Of a stretch of DNA of 64,000 nt, positions 5,370 to 55,023 are shown one piece after another (the first letter of the stretch is position 1; every line of letters starts with the position of its first letter). The stretch spans positions 160,001 through 224,000 of the forward strand of contig JBDONT010000043.1 in NCBI GenBank assembly GCA_039831155.1. The letters run 5' to 3'. A program made the translations under genes and the position numbers. The notes beneath the pieces are model-generated. The model searched no databases. It had not been told where the DNA came from and saw only the letters and a list, made by a program, of their open reading frames with translations. Source of the DNA: Nautiliaceae bacterium (GTDB lineage Bacteria; Campylobacterota; Campylobacteria; Campylobacterales; Nautiliaceae).

Positions 5370-6767
5370 TTATACCTTTTCCCATAAAGTTCCGTTTGGA
5401 GTGTCTTGTATCTGAATTCCCATATTTTTCAGTTCGTCTCTTATTTTATCTGCAAGTTCGTAATTTTTTTCTTTTTTAGCTTCGTTTCTTTTTTCGATAA
5501 GTTCGTTTATTTTCTTTTTAGTCTCTTCATCTATTCCGGCTTGGAAATACTCATACGCATCACTTCCACCGACTCCTAAAAGCGAATCTATAAACTCTAT
5601 ATTGTTTACGATTTTTTGTTTCAAGGCTTTGTCTTTAGGATTTTTATCCAGGTTTTCGTTTACTTCGTTTATAAATTCATCAACCGTTGCAAGTGCTTTT
5701 GAGATGTTTAGGTCGTCTTTTAGTGCGTTTAACAGTTTTTCTTCAAACTCTTTGTCTTTTTGTTTTTTACTAATTCCGTATACTCTTTTTTTGAGACGAT
5801 AAAGTTTATCGAGTCTTTTTTTGCTTGCGATTAAATCCTCTTCACTAAAATTCAGTGGGGCTCTGTAATGAGTACTCATAAGATAAAACCTTAAAACTTC
5901 TCCCGGGTAGTGTTTTAAGGCGTCTTTTACAAAAAAACTGTTTCCGAGTGATTTACTCATCTTTTCGCCGTTGATTTGTACAAATCCGTTATGCATCCAG
6001 TATTTTGCCAGGTGGGTGTCGTAAGCACAATAAGTTTGAGCCTCTTCGTTTTCGTGGTGAGGGAAAAAGAGGTCTGCTCCTCCCCCGTGGATGTCTATTT
6101 GATAAGGGGTATTATCGTAGGCTATATGTTTTTTAATCATAGCACTACACTCTATATGCCACCCCGGTCTTCCTTTTCCAAAAGGCGAATTAAAACATAC
6201 GTCATCTTCTCCTTTGCACGCTTTCCATAATGCGAAATCCGCCGGGTTTTTTTTACCTTCCGTATCTACTCTGTGAACGACTTCGCCCTCTTGACACTTG
6301 TTTGAGAGTTTGCAATACTCTTTGTCTTTGCTGGTATCAAAATAGATATCTCCGTTTTCCAGTTTGTAAGCGTACCCTTTTTGTAGGAGTTTATCGATTA
6401 ATTCGAACATAGCTTCAAGGGATTCGGTGGCTTTCGGTTCTATATCGGCTCTTTTTACGTTTAAAGCTTCCATATCTTTTAAATAAGAATCAATATAATA
6501 TTCGGTAATTTCTTTTAGACTCTTACCGGTTTGATTCATTTTTTTTATGATTTTATCGTCGATGTCAGTGAAGTTTTTTACGAAAGTTACGTTATAGCCT
6601 AATGCTTTTAGGGTACGTCTTAGTAAATCGAAACTTATAGAACTTCTAGCGTGTCCTAAGTGTGCGTCGTCGTATACCGTAGGTCCGCATACGTAAATTT
6701 TTACCTCTTTTTCTTTTAGGGGGATAAATTTAATTTTTTCTTTTAAATGTGAATCGTAGATTTTCAT
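5370..6767 (-). CDS. cysS: Cysteine--tRNA ligase
   Basis: CGPTVY, HLGH, GRPGWHIEC and KMSKS motifs. Confidence 0.97.
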   Translation of the reverse strand: MKIYDSHLKEKIKFIPLKEKEVKIYVCGPTVYDDAHLGHARSSISFDLLRRTLKALGYNVTFVKNFTDIDDKIIKKMNQTGKSLKEITEYYIDSYLKDMEALNVKRADIEPKATESLEAMFELIDKLLQKGYAYKLENGDIYFDTSKDKEYCKLSNKCQEGEVVHRVDTEGKKNPADFALWKACKGEDDVCFNSPFGKGRPGWHIECSAMIKKHIAYDNTPYQIDIHGGGADLFFPHHENEEAQTYCAYDTHLAKYWMHNGFVQINGEKMSKSLGNSFFVKDALKHYPGEVLRFYLMSTHYRAPLNFSEEDLIASKKRLDKLYRLKKRVYGISKKQKDKEFEEKLLNALKDDLNISKALATVDEFINEVNENLDKNPKDKALKQKIVNNIEFIDSLLGVGGSDAYEYFQAGIDEETKKKINELIEKRNEAKKEKNYELADKIRDELKNMGIQIQDTPNGTLWEKV

Positions 6768-40247: not shown

Positions 40248-41972
40248 TTATTTGTTTATTAATTCCATAATTTTCTCAAGAGCCATATCTTTATCAACTT
40301 CAAACTTATCACCCGTTTTTCTGTCCCTAATTTCAACTTTACCACTTTTAAGTTTTTTACCCACAATCACCCCAATAGGAAAACCAACAAGCTCAAAATC
40401 TGCAATTTTTGGACCAAATCTTTCACTTCTATCATCAAGAATAGTTTTAACTCCCGCTTTTTTAAGCTCTTCATATAAATTTGTAGCAAAATCTAATTGC
40501 TCTTCTTTTTTAACATCTCCTACAATTATATCAACCACAAAAGGTGCTATCTCTTTTGGCCAAATTATCCCTTTATCATCGTGATTTTGCTCAATTGCCG
40601 CAGCAATAAGTCTTGATACCCCAATTCCATAACATCCCATAATAAAAGGCTTAGCTTTTCCATTCTCATCAAGAAAAGTTGCATTCATAGGTTCAGAGTA
40701 AACCGTACCAAGCTTAAAGATATGTCCAACTTCAATTCCTTTTGTAATTTTTAAAGGCTTCCCACATTTTGGACACAAATCCCCCTCTTTCACAGCTGCA
40801 ATATCTCTATAAATCGTTAAATTCCCAAGTAGATTTGCATCAAGAAGTCCTGCTCCTTTTATATGATAATCTTTTTTATTTGCTCCACAAACTAACTCTT
40901 CTGCCATTCTTAAATCATCATCAATTACATACTTAATATTGCTTGGAAGTCCAAAAGGTCCAATAAATCCAGGCACAAGTCCCACTTTTTCAAGCTCATC
41001 TTCACTTGCATCAACAAGCTCCAAGGCTCCAACTGCATTTTTTGCTTTTGTCTCTTCTAATGTATCAGTTCCCCTTACAAAAAATACAACTATCTCCTCT
41101 TCTCCATTATCATAAATAGCCTTTTTAGCAACAGCTTTAATACTAAAATAAGGGTCAATTCCTAAAAACTCACAAACTTCTTCTATACTCTTTTTATCCG
41201 GAGTATACACTTCTTCGATTATTTCTGTTTTAATTGGATTTTCTCTTTTTTCGTTTTTTCTTTTTGCAACTTCAATATTTGCCGCATAATTACACTCACT
41301 GCAAACTACTATATCATCTTCTCCTGTATCAGCTAAAACCATAAACTCTTTACTACCTTTTCCACCAATAGCACCGCTATCAGCCTCAACTACTCTAAAA
41401 TCAAGCCCCATTCTTTTAAAAATTTCACTATAAGTCTCTTCCATTAAGTTAAATTCTCTATCCAAATCCTCTTTTGTAGCGTGAAAAGAGTAAGCGTCTT
41501 TCATTATAAATTCACGCCCTCTAAGAAGCCCAAATCTCGGTCTTGCTTCATCTCTAAATTTAAGATTTATTTGATATAAATTAACCGGAAGCTGTTTATA
41601 ACTTTTAATAGTCCCTCTTACTAAATCAACTACACTTTCTTCATTTGTAGGTGAAAGTACAAACTTTTGCCCTTTTCTATCTTCAATTCTTAAAAGCTCA
41701 TCACCATATTTTTTAGCCCTTCCTGTCTCTTCCCATAATTCATATGGAGTAACAAAACTTAGCATCACTTCCTGAGCCCCTGCTTTATCCATCTCTTCTT
41801 TAATTATTGCTCTTATATTATCAAGCACCATCTTCCCAAGAGGTGCAAAATCGTATATTCCGGCTGCGACTTGTTTTATATATCCACCTCTAACTAAATA
41901 TTTATGACTCGGCGTTACTGCATCTTTTGGTGCTTCTTTTAATGTATAAGCAAAAAATCTAGACCATCTCAT
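40248..41972 (-). CDS. proS: Proline--tRNA ligase (with editing domain)
   Basis: PTNEE, FRDEARPRFGLLRGREF, IEVGHIFKLG and MGCYGIGVSR; ATG at 41972 in a TGATG overlap. Confidence 0.97.
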   Translation of the reverse strand: MRWSRFFAYTLKEAPKDAVTPSHKYLVRGGYIKQVAAGIYDFAPLGKMVLDNIRAIIKEEMDKAGAQEVMLSFVTPYELWEETGRAKKYGDELLRIEDRKGQKFVLSPTNEESVVDLVRGTIKSYKQLPVNLYQINLKFRDEARPRFGLLRGREFIMKDAYSFHATKEDLDREFNLMEETYSEIFKRMGLDFRVVEADSGAIGGKGSKEFMVLADTGEDDIVVCSECNYAANIEVAKRKNEKRENPIKTEIIEEVYTPDKKSIEEVCEFLGIDPYFSIKAVAKKAIYDNGEEEIVVFFVRGTDTLEETKAKNAVGALELVDASEDELEKVGLVPGFIGPFGLPSNIKYVIDDDLRMAEELVCGANKKDYHIKGAGLLDANLLGNLTIYRDIAAVKEGDLCPKCGKPLKITKGIEVGHIFKLGTVYSEPMNATFLDENGKAKPFIMGCYGIGVSRLIAAAIEQNHDDKGIIWPKEIAPFVVDIIVGDVKKEEQLDFATNLYEELKKAGVKTILDDRSERFGPKIADFELVGFPIGVIVGKKLKSGKVEIRDRKTGDKFEVDKDMALEKIMELINK

Positions 41973-41985
41973 CAAATCTCCTTTA
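41971..41985. repeat. 15-bp direct repeat, proS-side copy (ATCAAATCTCCTTTA)
   Basis: Identical to 45781-45795; the flanking bases differ on both sides. Confidence 0.95.
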
Positions 41986-44017
41986 AATTAATTTCTAATT
42001 CATCACTTAAAAATTCTTTATATTCTTCAAAATCATATCCAAAATAATCACAATATGTTTTTAAAACTTCTTTATCTTCAAAGTTTTCTAAAATATTTAC
42101 ATTACCATCATAAACCTCCCTAGATATTTCCTCTGCTTTTTTTGTAAAATCTTCTTTTAAGTCTCTTTTTTTTAAATATAAAATTACAGTAGTTGTGCCT
42201 GTTTTTCCAAATGTGTTTGTTGGAAGCTTTACAATAGCTTTTATTTCAAAATATTTTAATAAAAGCTCTCTTGTTTTAATAAATAAAGCTGAATTTGTCT
42301 TATCTAAAATGGAAATTGGCAAAATTATAGCAGCTAAACCTTTATCTTTTAATATATGTTTCGTTTTTTCAACAAAAAAACACTCTATTGAATTATTAGT
42401 AGAATATTGTTTAACATCTACAAATTTTGAAAGCTCAAATTTTTCTGTATCTTCTTTTTTTAACGTTTCTAAAAACCCTTTAACACTATAAGGAGGATTT
42501 GAAATTAATACTTCAAATTCATCCTTAACTACATCTTTTTTTAAAGCGTCATCATAAATTATCTCAACTTCATTTCCATACATAAATGAACTTACCTTTG
42601 CCACTTTACTTAATCTATACTCTTTTTCAATACCTACTACTTTTGCTTGTTTATGATTTTTTGCAAATTCATTTAAAAAATGCCCCGCCCCACAAGCATA
42701 ATCTATCATAGACTTATACTCTTTTTTAGGAAGAGATGAGACAATAAACTTAACTATCGGCATTGGTGTAAAAAATTGCCCTTCGTTTTGTTTGATACCC
42801 TGGTCTAAAAAGCCCTCAAACAAATCCCCTAAAAATTGATTTTCTTCGGAATTTGTTAGATAAATATCTTGAAAAAGCAAAACAATTTTTCTTAACACCT
42901 CAAAATTTTGATAAAAAAGCTTTTCATTATGAACTTCAATAAAAGCAAAATCGTTTGTAGTAAAAAATTTTAGTTTTTTAATAGCTTCTTTTACTTTTTC
43001 TTTTATCGTTTCAATCTCAAAAGATTTAAAATATTTTTCTATATCTTGATTATCTATATAGGTAATATCTTCATTCAAAAACTCTTTCATACCCTCTTTA
43101 TAAAGCTTTTGTAATCTATCCTGAAACGAAAACGGGTCATCTATTGCAAAACCTCTCCAAAAAAATTGTAAATTATCAGGATTTTCTTTTTCATCTACTA
43201 TTTTACACAACAAAAGATTTACAAGCTTATCAAACGCATTTTCCCTACCACTTACATTATGAGCTCTTAAAACAGTAGCGAATTTATGATAAATTCCACT
43301 TATATCTTCCTCTTTTACAATTTTTAAATCTTTTAAGGAAAAAACACTCTTTTCAAGTTCATAAGCCCTAAATTCATCATCAAAAAGCCCTCTAATACCC
43401 TCTTTTTTATAAACTTCACTCCAAACTTCAAACAAAGCTTTTGCAATATCTCCAAGCTCTCCTTTTCTAGCTTTTTCATAATTTTTCTCTTTATCTAAAT
43501 TTTCCTCAACATCAATAAGCTTTATTAAAAAATATTTATAATCTAAATTTTCATTACTCGTATAAAGACTTATATATTTAGCACCACTATTAGCAGCATA
43601 AGAGAAAATCTGTCCCCCATCAAGTTGAGTTAATTTCAAAGCTTTTTCATATTCAGCTCCCCATGTCTTACATTCAATAATTACTAACGTTTTATCTTCA
43701 TTATCCTTTATAGCAATATCAGCTTTTCCACTTTTATCAAGGTGCCCTAATCTCCATTCCGGTTCAAGTTCAATATGTTTTGGTAAATACCCTTTATTAA
43801 GCAATCTATAAACGCACTCAAACACTACAAAATTTTCCGGTTTTGAAAAATTTGAGGTGGTTAAGTCATTTACTTTCAATTCATTCGGATAAATAAGCTT
43901 TTCATTGTTAAAATCTGCTTTTAACTCAAAATCTCCAAACTTTTTTATAAAAACATTATCTTTTTCTTCAAAATTAAGTTTTCTTAATACATTTTTAAAA
44001 TTTTCTTTTGTTATCAT
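41972..44017 (-). CDS. Endonuclease plus N6-adenine methyltransferase half of a type IIG/IIB (CjeI/Cj1051c-like) R-M-S enzyme
   Basis: KADIAIKD...IIECK nuclease motif; GQFFTP, DYACGAGHFL and SNPPY MTase motifs. Confidence 0.9.
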   Translation of the reverse strand: MITKENFKNVLRKLNFEEKDNVFIKKFGDFELKADFNNEKLIYPNELKVNDLTTSNFSKPENFVVFECVYRLLNKGYLPKHIELEPEWRLGHLDKSGKADIAIKDNEDKTLVIIECKTWGAEYEKALKLTQLDGGQIFSYAANSGAKYISLYTSNENLDYKYFLIKLIDVEENLDKEKNYEKARKGELGDIAKALFEVWSEVYKKEGIRGLFDDEFRAYELEKSVFSLKDLKIVKEEDISGIYHKFATVLRAHNVSGRENAFDKLVNLLLCKIVDEKENPDNLQFFWRGFAIDDPFSFQDRLQKLYKEGMKEFLNEDITYIDNQDIEKYFKSFEIETIKEKVKEAIKKLKFFTTNDFAFIEVHNEKLFYQNFEVLRKIVLLFQDIYLTNSEENQFLGDLFEGFLDQGIKQNEGQFFTPMPIVKFIVSSLPKKEYKSMIDYACGAGHFLNEFAKNHKQAKVVGIEKEYRLSKVAKVSSFMYGNEVEIIYDDALKKDVVKDEFEVLISNPPYSVKGFLETLKKEDTEKFELSKFVDVKQYSTNNSIECFFVEKTKHILKDKGLAAIILPISILDKTNSALFIKTRELLLKYFEIKAIVKLPTNTFGKTGTTTVILYLKKRDLKEDFTKKAEEISREVYDGNVNILENFEDKEVLKTYCDYFGYDFEEYKEFLSDELEINLKEI

Positions 44018-44026
44018 TTAAAGCCT

Positions 44027-45781
44027 TTATAAGTATTTCCTTAAAATCTCTTCTTTTTGAGTTTTAGCAGAATTTATAATCTCTTCATTAGCCCTAATTC
44101 TTTTTTCAAGTTTTTCAATCTGTTTTACTATTTCTTGTTGAACTTCAATAGGTGGAAGAGGGATTTTTAGGTTTTCATAAAAATTTATTGGTACTCTTTT
44201 ATGACCACTTGCACCAGTCATAACCTGTTGAGCTTGTTTGCGTATTTGTTCTCTATTTAGAAAATAAAACAAATATCCATTATCCAAATCATTATCTTTT
44301 ACTCTAAAAACATGAAACTCGCTACTTCCAAAAGCTATATTGTTTTTTAAATTTCTAGCAATGGCACATTTTCCATTTTCCATAGAGGGAGTAATTTTTG
44401 CAATAATTATGTCGTTTTCTCTAAAATATGTATAACTTCCCTTTTTTAATTCTTTTAATTTTTTAATATCTTGCTTTTTTATATATCCATTTTCACTAAC
44501 ATATTCCATCGGTATAAAAGAAACTTCTAAATTCTCATCTAAATTAGCTATCTCTTTTTTAGAAGGATTAAATAATACTAAATCTTTTAATAAAACACTT
44601 TTTTCTTTTACATTATTTATTATTTCTTCAATTTCTCTTTTTAATTTAACATTTTCTTCTTTTAACTTTTCAACTTTTTCATCGATTTCACTGCACTCTT
44701 TTACTATATTTTCTTGGATTTTTCTTTCTACTAAAGGTATTTGAATATTCAAATAATCATCCATCTGCAAATTTTTTATATTACTCATACCTGTTTGCAT
44801 ATCAAAAGTAAATCCTTGATTGTAAACATAATCTAAAAGCAAAAACAAAAATTTACTCTTAAATCTATTATTTTTTAGTCTCAGTCTAACCATAAAGTTT
44901 GAAAATGTATATCCCTTCTCTTTTAAATCAAAATACATTACCCTACCAACTGCCTGATGAGAGCTACCACCTGACTTTTCTAAAATAATATCACCCTCTT
45001 TTAACTCCCTATTTCTAAACTGCTTTTCTTCTACTTGCAACCCTTTTACATCTGAAAAATCTATATTATTAGAAGTATCTCCAAAATTGGTATTTCTTAA
45101 AACTTTTGCCTTAATAAAAGGAGGCTTTTTACCTTCCCATAATCCTCCTATTGTATCTACAATATTACCAAGCTTTATATTTTGATATTTTTCGCTTAAT
45201 TTAACTACAACTTTTGGTTTTAACCTAATAACCTTATTAAATTCACTCTCTTTAATATCAAGCATATCGGTTAGATTATAAACTTTTACAAATTTTTGCA
45301 AATCTTCACTAATTCTAAACTCTTTATCTTCTAAAAAGTTCCTGATTATTACGTTTAATTTATTCTCATCATCTAAATTTTTCGGATTATATAGAGGAGT
45401 TTGGATATTGTTTATACTTTTTATATTTTGAAGGGTTCTTTTCTCATCTTCATCAAGTTCTTCTTTAATCTCTACGTTAGAGATATATTTTATTCCCTCA
45501 TTTCCCTTCGCACTACTCCACTCATACCCTAAAAATTTTTTTATCTCATTTGTTTTATTAGGTGAATTTATTACTAATGTTTTTTGATTGTAAGTTAATA
45601 AAAAGTATAAAAATTTTTCTCTTTCTCTCTCTTTTACAAACTTCCTAAACTCTTTATTTTCTATTTTTTCTTGCTCTTCTTTACTTAGTTCTTTATATTT
45701 TTTTCTACTTCTTCTATCTTTTGTAGATTTTAAATTTTCAAATTTTTTTTTATACTCCTTCAACATATCTTTAAAACCCAA
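44027..45781 (-). CDS. Specificity half: MTase C-terminal helical/linker region plus two HsdS-like TRDs
   Basis: KKFLGYEWS..KGNEGIK linker typical of fused IIG enzymes; two TRDs ending IPLVERKIQ and IPLPPIEVQ; TTG start with AAGGAG upstream. Confidence 0.88.
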   Translation of the reverse strand: MGFKDMLKEYKKKFENLKSTKDRRSRKKYKELSKEEQEKIENKEFRKFVKEREREKFLYFLLTYNQKTLVINSPNKTNEIKKFLGYEWSSAKGNEGIKYISNVEIKEELDEDEKRTLQNIKSINNIQTPLYNPKNLDDENKLNVIIRNFLEDKEFRISEDLQKFVKVYNLTDMLDIKESEFNKVIRLKPKVVVKLSEKYQNIKLGNIVDTIGGLWEGKKPPFIKAKVLRNTNFGDTSNNIDFSDVKGLQVEEKQFRNRELKEGDIILEKSGGSSHQAVGRVMYFDLKEKGYTFSNFMVRLRLKNNRFKSKFLFLLLDYVYNQGFTFDMQTGMSNIKNLQMDDYLNIQIPLVERKIQENIVKECSEIDEKVEKLKEENVKLKREIEEIINNVKEKSVLLKDLVLFNPSKKEIANLDENLEVSFIPMEYVSENGYIKKQDIKKLKELKKGSYTYFRENDIIIAKITPSMENGKCAIARNLKNNIAFGSSEFHVFRVKDNDLDNGYLFYFLNREQIRKQAQQVMTGASGHKRVPINFYENLKIPLPPIEVQQEIVKQIEKLEKRIRANEEIINSAKTQKEEILRKYL

Positions 45782-45795
45782 TCAAATCTCCTTTA
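45781..45795. repeat. 15-bp direct repeat, S4-gene-side copy (ATCAAATCTCCTTTA)
   Basis: Identical to 41971-41985. Confidence 0.95.
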
Positions 45796-46033
45796 CGTAT
45801 TCTGTTTTTCTACTCTTTGGAATAGTCTTAGTCTCCGGTATTCGCAATACTTCGTATTTTTTAACGCCGCTTAAATAGTGAATTTCTATTATATCACCTA
45901 CTTTTACATCTTTAGCCGGTTTTGCTTTTTTTCCATTTATAAAAACAACGCCCTCTTTACACATCTCATCGGCTATTGAGCGTCTTTTTACGATATTAAC
46001 CGCATTTAAAAACTTATCTATCCTCAAACTCAT
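45782..46033 (-). CDS. S4-domain RNA-binding protein (Hsp15/RqcP-like)
   Basis: RIDKFL...KRRSIA...KPAKDVKVGD motif. Confidence 0.9.
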   Translation of the reverse strand: MSLRIDKFLNAVNIVKRRSIADEMCKEGVVFINGKKAKPAKDVKVGDIIEIHYLSGVKKYEVLRIPETKTIPKSRKTEYVKEI

Positions 46034-46085: not shown

Positions 46086-46625
46086 ATGTGTGCAATTGAA
46101 TATTACACTTATGAGGATTATAAAAAGTGGGAGGGGGATTGGGAGTTAATTGATGGTATCCCTCTTGCAATGGCACCAGCACATCTTCCTACTCATCAAT
46201 TTATAACATTTCAAATATCACATCAACTAAACTCTCAATTAGAAGAGTATTTAGAGTGTGCAGTTTTAGGAGAAGTTGACTATAAAATAGATGAAGAGAA
46301 TGTCCTAAGACCAGATTTAGTTTTAACTTGCGAAAAATTAAATAAACCTTACCTGTCACTTGCACCAGAAATAGTATTTGAAATAGTTTCCCCATCAACT
46401 GCTAGAAGAGATGAAAAGTTTAAATTTGAATTATATGAAAAAGAAAAAGTTAAATATTATGTTTTGGTATACCCAAACGATAAAAAAGCAAAAGTTTATA
46501 AACTCAATAACTCCAAATATGAAAAAGAGGGAGACATCATAACAAAGTATGAATTTAAAGAAACAAAGTGTAAAGTTAGTGTAGATTTTGAGAAAATCTT
46601 TAAAAGACTTAGTATAATTACATAA
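46086..46625 (+). CDS. Uma2 (DUF820) family PD-(D/E)XK endonuclease-like protein
   Basis: [24 protein letters not shown]...K...Y and V..Y.LV.P pattern. Confidence 0.9.
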
Positions 46626-53124: not shown

Positions 53125-53994
53125 TTATTTGAATTTATCCATATAACCAAATATCAATAACGGTTTAATCTTAAATTGCAATGATGTAGGGTCCGGTGTA
53201 CCTCCTTTTCTTTGCATTACTATACCATTACTAAGCTGTAGACTTGCTTTCCTTTTTTTAGTTAATTTCACGTCTCCTATTTGAAAGCAATCCAAAGCCG
53301 TATTAATATTTGTTAAAACCCATTTCGTTTCATTTTTATCCGGGTCGTATCTTACCACCATTAACCATTCTGCAGCTAAAGCTCCTCGCCCTTTTATAAT
53401 ATCAAGTAAAATTTGAAACTTTTTTTCGCTAAAAAATTTAATTATTTTTTCTAAATATTTTGGCTTTAAATAATTTAGATAAATTCTTCTACAATCTTCA
53501 AGTTCTTCCGCTGTCATCCCACAATATTTACATAGTAAGTCAGGGTGTTTTACCGGTTCTATTTCTCCGGTAAATAATTTTAATATCGTCGCAATTTCGT
53601 CATCAAACTTCCATATTTTTTGATACCTGTCTACTTTTCTCTTGTCTACTTGATTATAATTTGCATTTTTATTTGCTTTCTTAACAGAAATATTTTCTCT
53701 TTTTATAACCCCATTACTTAAAATAACCGTAATTTGAACCTGTAAGTCTGCTTTTTTAAATTGCAAATCTTCATCGTTTTCCAATCCGAGACTTCTTGCA
53801 AATTCTTTGTTTATTTGTGGTGGAATCCCAATTGCCCTTACCTCTTTAATATCTTCTAATCTACAACCGAGTATTTTTAACCAAACCTGTGCTTCTTTAT
53901 CGTTTTTCCAATTATTAAATTTCTCAACCACTTTGTCTTCAGATGCGAAACCTCCTTTTGCCGTTGAAGAACCAAATTCAAAATCATACGCCAT
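53125..53994 (-). CDS. Type II restriction endonuclease, HinP1I/MspI-like
   Basis: GSSTAKGGF..E...FNNWK...AQVWL, NQVDK, FTGE, DIIKGRGALAAEW and MQRKGG...LQFKI match the HinP1I family pattern. Confidence 0.82.
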   Translation of the reverse strand: MAYDFEFGSSTAKGGFASEDKVVEKFNNWKNDKEAQVWLKILGCRLEDIKEVRAIGIPPQINKEFARSLGLENDEDLQFKKADLQVQITVILSNGVIKRENISVKKANKNANYNQVDKRKVDRYQKIWKFDDEIATILKLFTGEIEPVKHPDLLCKYCGMTAEELEDCRRIYLNYLKPKYLEKIIKFFSEKKFQILLDIIKGRGALAAEWLMVVRYDPDKNETKWVLTNINTALDCFQIGDVKLTKKRKASLQLSNGIVMQRKGGTPDPTSLQFKIKPLLIFGYMDKFK

Positions 53995-54024
53995 TTTAAA
54001 ACTCCTTATAAAACATCAAATAAA

Positions 54025-54048
54025 ACCGATTGTTCTACCGATTGTTCT
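54025..54048. repeat. 12-bp tandem repeat ACCGATTGTTCT x2 between the M and R genes
   Basis: Exact copies at 54025-54036 and 54037-54048, followed by short TCTA repeats. Confidence 0.85.
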
Positions 54049-54060
54049 ATCTATCTATTT

Positions 54061-55023
54061 TTATTTAAAAATATTTTTAAATATAGGATTTATTACGGCT
54101 TTAACAACGTTTACAGGAACGCTGTTTCCAAATAAAGAAATAGCTTTATTATAAGACACATCTTTTATTTCATAAGAATCAGGAAACCCGAAAAGCTTTT
54201 TAACTTCGTTTACGGTTAATTTTCGGATTCCTTCCGGAGTTTTATAAGCCCCTGTTTTTGAAAACACTCCCCCTGTACTATGGGAAATAGTTACCGAAGT
54301 TCCTTTAATACTATAAATTCTCTCTCCTTGTCTTCCTTTTTTAACTTTAGCTATTTGATAAGGTCCGTGGATTCTTTTGTCGGTTTCTTCTTTTATTATT
54401 TCATAATCTCCATCATAAAATAAAGTTGCGTCAACTTCTTTTTCAATAATATCTTCAAGAACAACTACATTGCAATTCTTTTTTGCGTCTTCTTTTAATT
54501 TTTTAAAATCGTAAGTAAAATCATAATCTTTATGAATAGCGACTATAAAAACTCTTTCTCTACTTTGTGCTAAATTAAAAAATTTAGAATTTAAAATATC
54601 CGCATAAACATTATAGTCAAGTTCTTCAAGTAATCTTTTTACCGTGATAAAAGTATTTCCACTATCATGAGTTAAAAAATTTCTAACATTCTCCAACACC
54701 AACACCGGAGGTCTTTTAACTTCTACAATATCCCTAATATAAAAAAATAAATTTCCGTTTTTTTCGTCTTCAAAACCTTTCCTCTTTCCCGCTACGCTAA
54801 AAGGCTGACAAGGAAATCCGGCAAACAAAATATCAAAATCAGGAATATCTTCTGGGTTGATTTTTGTTATATCGGGATAAGGCTCATCTTTAAAATTATC
54901 TTTGTATACCTTTTTGGCGTTTTTTTCTATTTCACAACTAAAAACGCAGTCTCCTCCTAATTCTTCAGCAGCAATTCTAAATCCTCCGATTCCGGCAAAC
55001 AAATCAACAAACTTAACACTCAT
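54061..55023 (-). CDS. DNA (cytosine-5)-methyltransferase, M.HhaI-like
   Basis: DLFAGIGG, GFPCQPFS, ENV, QSRER and GNSV motifs; TRD QGERIYS..G...T...GGVFSKTGAY resembles M.HhaI. Confidence 0.92.
   Translation of the reverse strand: MSVKFVDLFAGIGGFRIAAEELGGDCVFSCEIEKNAKKVYKDNFKDEPYPDITKINPEDIPDFDILFAGFPCQPFSVAGKRKGFEDEKNGNLFFYIRDIVEVKRPPVLVLENVRNFLTHDSGNTFITVKRLLEELDYNVYADILNSKFFNLAQSRERVFIVAIHKDYDFTYDFKKLKEDAKKNCNVVVLEDIIEKEVDATLFYDGDYEIIKEETDKRIHGPYQIAKVKKGRQGERIYSIKGTSVTISHSTGGVFSKTGAYKTPEGIRKLTVNEVKKLFGFPDSYEIKDVSYNKAISLFGNSVPVNVVKAVINPIFKNIFK

Follow-up and report, generated by a model that had tools for sequence, protein, structure and literature searches.

Insertion of R-M genes with target duplication was reportedly described by Nobusato et al. 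in 2000. Such insertions are also described by Furuta et al. 2010 (PMC2853133), where the repeats are said to often cover a translation start or stop, and where operon-like clusters are found among the targets as well. The R-M life cycle proposed in that paper consists of amplification between repeats followed by release, and its account of the cycle offers release without experimental evidence (PMC2853133). The locus described here resembles these cases in holding an R-M gene alone, with no mobility gene, between direct repeats, and in having an empty site in relatives. The insert has R and M homology, contains no other mobile genes and, at 3.8 kb, is well below the 20 kb allowed by Furuta et al.; the one-copy empty site takes the form of a single 15-mer in two relatives and of a contig joint that skips 3,810 bp. 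It is unlike these cases in two respects. Its repeat is 15 bp without extension, whereas theirs had to exceed 30 bp, and the present gene is cut and permuted, whereas theirs are whole. A unit-length permuted gene is the trace that would be expected of the released circle that they proposed.

The enzymes to be compared with this gene are of Type IIB. AloI and CjeI are single-chain enzymes of ~1,250 aa with the order R~M~TRD1~TRD2 (PMC3874165). The gene shares with them the domain order, the two recognition domains and, when its halves are rejoined, the length (1,261 aa), and a model of a homologue has the knob described below. It differs in being two ORFs in swapped order rather than one polypeptide, and it is likened to them by architecture, not by sequence. 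BcgI and BsaXI have separate RM and S chains, as found here, and BsaXI is the top fold match of the homologue model. In BsaXI, a helical "knob" is inserted between strands 7 and 8 of the methyltransferase (MTase), and single-chain RMS enzymes are predicted to carry it too (PMC11997821). However, the RM chain of BsaXI holds the whole knob and strand 8 (PMC11997821), whereas our boundary falls within the knob, ~190 residues before the first recognition domain, and the RM chain does not hold a complete MTase. With the boundary in that place, a 2RM:1S assembly would not be expected.

The locus also differs from elements with enzymes for their own movement. The initial annotation had listed no terminal inverted repeats, transposase or integrase, and this holds: no terminal pair occurs among the 25 longest of 484 inverted-repeat pairs, the two R-M ORFs are the insert's only ORFs of note, and neither enzyme family was matched. 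The locus is therefore unlike an IS or transposon, and it is unlike an integrase element as well in that the core is surplus to the gene and no recombinase is present in the insert. A parallel for the swapped order comes from animals. In the translocations of cattle KIT and tilapia vasa via circular DNA intermediates, swapped order is diagnostic (PMC3420103), and it would arise here in the same way if a circle was opened away from its closure point. The cattle segments, however, are ~500 kb and eukaryotic, whereas the unit here is one bacterial gene, measures 3.8 kb and is flanked by a short target duplication.

R-M insertion with target duplication preserving start and stop signals is already known in kind. 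What appears to be new is that the R-M gene at this operon junction has unit length and is circularly permuted; it may still be active in the form of two chains. No permuted or circle-derived R-M insert was found in the literature searched, which covered subscription journals thinly. R-M genes move without mobile elements, and their travelling form is described in the account cited above as proposed but never seen (PMC2853133). An insert of exactly one gene, opened mid-gene, would be direct sequence evidence for a closed or tandem unit, and it provides a searchable signature, namely swapped halves that rejoin to the family length. If active, the enzyme would represent a natural Type IIB split at a new position and would bear on the assembly of single-chain RMS enzymes.

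The host junction and its 15-bp repeat

The window is the whole 64,000-nucleotide stretch of DNA that was analysed, and its source genome (G000) is a 1.53-Mb, 43-contig assembly that is 96.7% complete. All parts of the locus lie on the minus strand, in the order S4-domain gene, repeat, 584-aa ORF, 9 bp, 681-aa ORF, repeat, proS. The host S4-domain gene (45782–46033, 83 aa) matches Pfam S4 with an E value of 3.4e-11, has a weak Hsp15 match and is present in 37 of 41 genomes; we take it to be YabO/RqcP-like by name, and also Hsp15-like. The host gene proS (40248–41972), for proline-tRNA ligase, matches NCBIfam PRK09194 and TIGR00409 above cut-off. Between these lies the unique insert of 3,795 bp (41986–45780), made up of 1,262 codons (a 1,261-aa protein and its stop) and a 9-bp spacer, with a G+C content of 24–28% versus 30–35% in proS. 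The ORF next to the S4-domain gene (44027–45781, 584 aa) matches Methylase_S in two stretches and is read as the back half, or S half, of a permuted gene. The ORF next to proS (41972–44017, 681 aa) matches HSDR_N_2, N6_Mtase and Eco57I and is read as its front half, or R-M half. Where they meet (44015–44029), the old gene end is joined to the old gene start as TAA, 9 bp and ATG (TAAAGGCTTTAAATG).

The 15-mer TAAAGGAGATTTGAT (minus strand) is found exactly at 45781–45795 and at 41971–41985, the copies being 3,810 bp apart. The match stops at these 15 bases in both directions, and there are exactly 2 copies in the 1.53-Mb genome; shuffles of the window gave a mean of 0.75 15-mer matches even when 2 mismatches were allowed. 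The left copy contains the S4 stop, a Shine-Dalgarno (SD) sequence and the initial T of the S-half TTG, and the right copy contains the R-M half stop and the proS SD and start overlap. The initial annotation described this as a portable stop, SD and start module. As it said, the repeat closes both the S4 ORF (...YVKEI*) and the R-M half (...NLKEI*) and precedes two starts, the TTG of the S half (584 aa) and the proS ATG. The spacing of AAGGAG, given as 6–7 nt for both starts, is 6 nt to the TTG but 5 nt to the proS ATG. The duplication did supply the R-M half stop and the S-half SD with the first TTG base, and it kept the proS SD, but the word portable has to be dropped, since within the genome the 15-mer is confined to the S4/proS site and is not carried along with the gene. 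Besides those 2 copies genome-wide, a relaxed pattern gave only 5 matches on 5 separate contigs, none of them paired, and a portable module was rejected. A suggestion that other accessory genes might be flanked by duplicated junctions found no support in two spot checks, on a paralogue on contig C35 and on a HinP1I-like pair, where no clean duplication was seen. The 15-mer is the host S4/proS stop–SD–start overlap, duplicated by an insertion; S4/proS sequence was reused at one site rather than carried from site to site. Judging from the reading frames, both halves and the essential neighbour appear to be still translatable through the copied 15 bases.

A host origin by target duplication had been proposed from the reconstructed junction, and the relatives bear it out. 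Among 29 other family genomes considered, the S4 end and its downstream DNA are readable in 18, and S4 overlaps proS directly in 12 of these 18 (8 by stop-TG overlap and 4 by ATGA). The identical 15-mer is held once in each of two relatives (L003 and L007), as predicted for a single-copy ancestral site. Six family genomes have something between S4 and proS, with both states present on two contigs of G020, and proS is located elsewhere in one family genome. Contigs of one vent sample also show an empty allele, in which exactly 3,810 bp are missing and the joint is ambiguous by 15 bases. Two contigs of that sample are informative. X3 bridges the site but belongs to a diverged strain, with 18 of 201 bases different on the S4 side; X1 is closer (3 differences) but has just 21 bases on the proS side. 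Because the bridging contig is from a diverged strain, the 3,810-bp joint is no evidence for precise excision from the source strain.

The proS SD is embedded in the last codons of the S4-domain gene. The usefulness of the repeat is therefore best explained by survival, in that only inserts recreating the proS SD would persist.

A contig from a further strain, X4, has a joint of 42000 to 45781 that links the S4 end to the final 30 bases of the R-M half, the short side being 29 bases. This suggests an allele with nearly all of the insert deleted and both repeats kept. Separately, a Uma2-family putative endonuclease gene lies between the S4 and argG starts (46086–46625, plus strand), with similar TATAATT...AAAGG promoter/SD strings on either side. 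It is absent from an X4 contig (joint 46041–46638) and from G044, so it is a second accessory insert at duplicated expression signals.

Unit length and swapped order of the insert

To compare the gene with intact relatives, a query was built from the end of the R-M half and the beginning of the S half, the stop being written as X. It was aligned with each of the 120 best among the 5,881 homologues that exceed 1,192 aa. These are fused R~M~S proteins, nearly all of 1,206–1,302 aa. The join at one repeat copy is exactly 5 residues (15 bp) too long relative to 108 of the 120 intact homologues; the remaining 12 have scattered offsets. The pairwise alignment to P0133, a close intact homologue to whose subfamily both halves match (68% and 48%), also places 5 extra residues in the join, and the DNA of P0133 has no such core at the break. 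The initial annotation had pointed out that intact homologues might already contain LKEI at this position, which would indicate crossover at a shared core. No LKEI occurs at that column, where the consensus is L/I-F-E/K-N/H/Y, and the 15-bp surplus favours target duplication. Since 5 residues equal 15 bp, the whole repeat is surplus, and what is left, 3,795 bp, is a complete in-frame 1,261-aa gene plus the 9-bp spacer. By the same surplus, the final 5 codon positions of the front half derive from the host repeat. Once the repeat is subtracted, the insert amounts to one whole R~M~S gene of the single-chain, Type IIB-like kind, in circularly permuted form, together with 9 bp.

The residues beside the break have drifted from the family consensus, with G and L where most homologues carry F, so the permutation argument is carried by the length match rather than by sequence identity. 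The frame and length of the join would have been beyond selection after the swap, and the length match therefore indicates that the two ends of the donor had been continuous at one time. Such a donor would be either a circle of one gene or a single unit excised from a tandem array. The TAA/ATG joint would then mark the closure point of the donor circle. This joint, TAAAGGCTTTAAATG, is itself a stop/weak-SD/start junction, which would be consistent with closure of the circle between junctions of this kind at a previous site. With 1 mismatch allowed, its only occurrence among 156 loci was that of the window itself. Neither a donor circle nor a tandem array nor a close intact allele came to light: there is no intact allele closer than 74% among the best 120 of 5,881 homologues, and no circle junction among the 15 of 24 contig joints listed. 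A search for a phage carrier yielded 2 viral loci of only 40–41% identity, and the sole return of a scan of the genome collection with the S half was a relic (L136, counted once with G005).

We think it likely that unit-length R~M~S gene DNA, opened in the knob, was joined into the overlap of S4 and proS, with 15 bp of the target being duplicated. The single-chain Type IIB-like gene would have been present as unit-length DNA, one gene plus 9 bp, either as a circle or as an array unit. It would have been opened within the knob-coding region and then joined, without a recombinase of its own, into the overlap, producing the duplication. The insert would have persisted because the duplication preserved the proS SD and start. 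Through the duplication, the front half would also have acquired a stop, and the back half an SD and a TTG. For some time thereafter, the two chains most likely complemented each other as fragments of one working enzyme. The order of the parts, their exact unit length, the host origin of the repeat and the empty sites are observed and form the basis of this reading; from them, we infer that the donor was a circle or array unit and that its joining was illegitimate. It is weighed down by a break that lies inside a folded domain and by lesions in other carriers (G005, P0122 and P0200, see below). No known enzyme here accounts for a 15-bp stagger. The genome encodes Cas1 and a reverse transcriptase, and nothing ties either to the insert; no IS110 family member was found in the genome at its 96.7% completeness, and none of its 4 tyrosine recombinases is on the insert's contig.

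The source genome also has an intact 1,228-aa R~M~S paralogue, ~38% identical, on contig C35 (L031:6031–9717). It is missing from that site in G005, G004 and G001. It starts directly after a shared TTATAAT, with no clean flanking duplication.

The two halves and their other carriers

The position of the break was examined in a structure model of P0123, a homologue that is intact across it (104-row alignment, pLDDT 81). The best fold match of the model is the Type IIB enzyme BsaXI (PDB 8w0p, E 2.2e-12), and knob helices at 215–336 lie between strands at 201–208 and 342–346. The break corresponds to P0123 272/273 and is predicted to fall in a 5-residue helix after a loop, inside the knob. The front half keeps a PD-(D/E)xK-type nuclease region, the SAM-binding and NPPY motifs of an N6-adenine MTase (DYACGAG, NPPY) and the first knob part, and is without the long knob helix and strand 8. 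Those are on the back half, where mapping on the homologue model and the description of BsaXI place the second knob part with its long helix, MTase strand 8 and then both target-recognition domains. Together, the halves have the components of a Type IIB enzyme: a nuclease, a gamma N6-MTase and two TRDs in ~1,250 aa in all. With the knob helix and strand 8 on the back half, activity would require reassembly of the two chains.

The same split is found in a pair of proteins, P0200 (94% identical) and P0122 (91% identical, 97% similar), whose longest contigs are equal in size. P0200 ends in LEISLKEI, that is, in the same KEI, and P0122 has the same first residue as the S half (302 of 331 residues identical and 322 similar). 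A relic in G005 has the halves in the same order with the same junctions. X4 contigs, ~91% identical, span both junction regions, passing the repeats by only 17 and 14 bases, under the 31-base standard, and this fourth strain probably also carries the split. Since the carriers share the split, their divergence arose afterwards, unless unsampled intact alleles recombined in. In R-M half codons 377–421, 5 of 5 differences from G005 are synonymous. The X4 differences listed are the best-supported subset, with 285 further rows outside it; in this subset, 19 differences at 42057–42263, decoded by hand, give 10 synonymous codons and 6 that are not, and 7 of 7 in a conserved stretch, codons 585–609, are synonymous. 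The G005 S stretch is mixed: 4 codons are synonymous and 4 are not, one of these lying at the edge of a deletion. On the whole, substitutions lean synonymous or conservative, and the split enzyme was probably under selection. We lean towards the view that it functioned, by fragment complementation of the two chains. RNA-library contigs overlap parts of both halves; they are no guide to transcription or its level.

Decay is seen in some of the carriers. The G005 relic is deleted, frameshifted and without the S-half TTG, and P0122 stops at 335 aa. In P0200, MTase motif I is duplicated over 24 residues (434–457), the duplication having a divergent tail; this is either a real lesion or an assembly error. 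Decay in 2 of 4 lineages, the TTG not retained in G005 and a knob break that deprives the front half of MTase strand 8 are what would be seen if the same insertion had delivered a permuted gene that was dead on arrival, leaving a decaying pseudogene pair with a stop, SD and TTG that are a by-product of the proS requirement. We consider this unlikely. In G000 neither ORF is interrupted anywhere in the 3.8 kb, the synonymous and conservative bias is seen between lineages that all share the split, and X4 has no listed indel inside the insert.

The relic locus in G005 (L056) has some further features. Behind its R-M end there is a 26-codon ORF (6100–6240) starting MVTEDNYK, loosely like the N-terminus of the R-M half. 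Another SD copy lies between this small ORF and proS, and the proS start is duplicated around an N gap.

Other insertions at the junction and routes of joining

Unrelated genes occupy the S4/proS junction in other members of the family. G001 has radC and a type I hsdM-S-AAA-hsdR block there, flanked by the 15-mer and a 13/14 copy; in G013, a RelE pair lies between exact copies of a 14-mer; G020 has a PIN pair flanked by a 16/17 repeat; and G021 has a decayed RelE-like gene. The left and right copies differ slightly, by A/C in G020 and by G/A in G001. From these comparisons, we regard the junction as a recurrent landing pad for unrelated inserts. Recurrence would follow because the junction admits genes into a transcribed unit while selection purges those that lose the proS SD. 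This survival filter is the simplest reason, and SD-like microhomology may guide some of the insertions.

Several unrelated inserts at one site, with near-copies of a core that are slightly unlike each other in G020 and G001, would also be produced by crossover at a shared SD-like core. This would be a Campbell-type event, through microhomology or one of the 4 tyrosine recombinases in the genome acting in trans, and the donor circle would already have most or all of the 15-mer. The route stays open for the toxin-antitoxin inserts. For the R-M insert it is improbable, since the donor would need 5 extra codons, including an in-frame TGA, whereas 108 of 120 homologues are of precisely the length that results when these codons are left out, the P0133 DNA lacks the core and no recombinase is inside the insert.

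A circle might also be dispensed with altogether, either by a linear fragment taken across a tandem pair of different R-M-S genes or by a native two-gene system of S and RM. Two-subunit Type IIB enzymes do exist (PMC3874165), and the spacer resembles an ordinary operon junction. However, both ends fall at one codon and nothing is gained or lost on balance, an outcome that two independent breaks would seldom produce; known RM subunits end after strand 8; and among the 9 + 12 proteins inspected, just P0122 and P0200 begin or end at the break. This makes an origin without a circle quite improbable. An assembly artefact of the metagenome bin would be easier in a 43-contig assembly lacking a read set across the insert, but it is hardly credible with the same junctions in G005 and in proteins from another contig that are 6–9% divergent.

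We retain the joining of a unit-length gene into the overlap with target duplication, and a broader proposal can be put forward tentatively, its three parts being taken jointly. The locus may be a fossil of the R-M "release" form, a free one-gene circle that was reinserted without a recombinase; its product may be an active permuted two-chain Type IIB enzyme that reassembles across the knob; and stop/SD/start overlaps may serve as recombinase-free landing pads for defence genes in this family.

Tight packing of accessory genes is seen at other sites too. Other RelE/PIN toxin-antitoxin pairs (L199:1297–1816 and L206:1498–2115) are packed tightly between host genes, and the last codons of their toxins encode the SD of the next gene. 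The toxin C-termini vary between copies, as if acquired from each landing site. Within the window, at 53125–55023 on the minus strand, a HinP1I-like endonuclease (by Pfam) and a cytosine-methyltransferase-like gene (by motifs) lie between pepA- and ychF-like genes, with no flanking repeat seen. The start of the cytosine-methyltransferase-like gene is also present in G005, and another gene is found there in G007.
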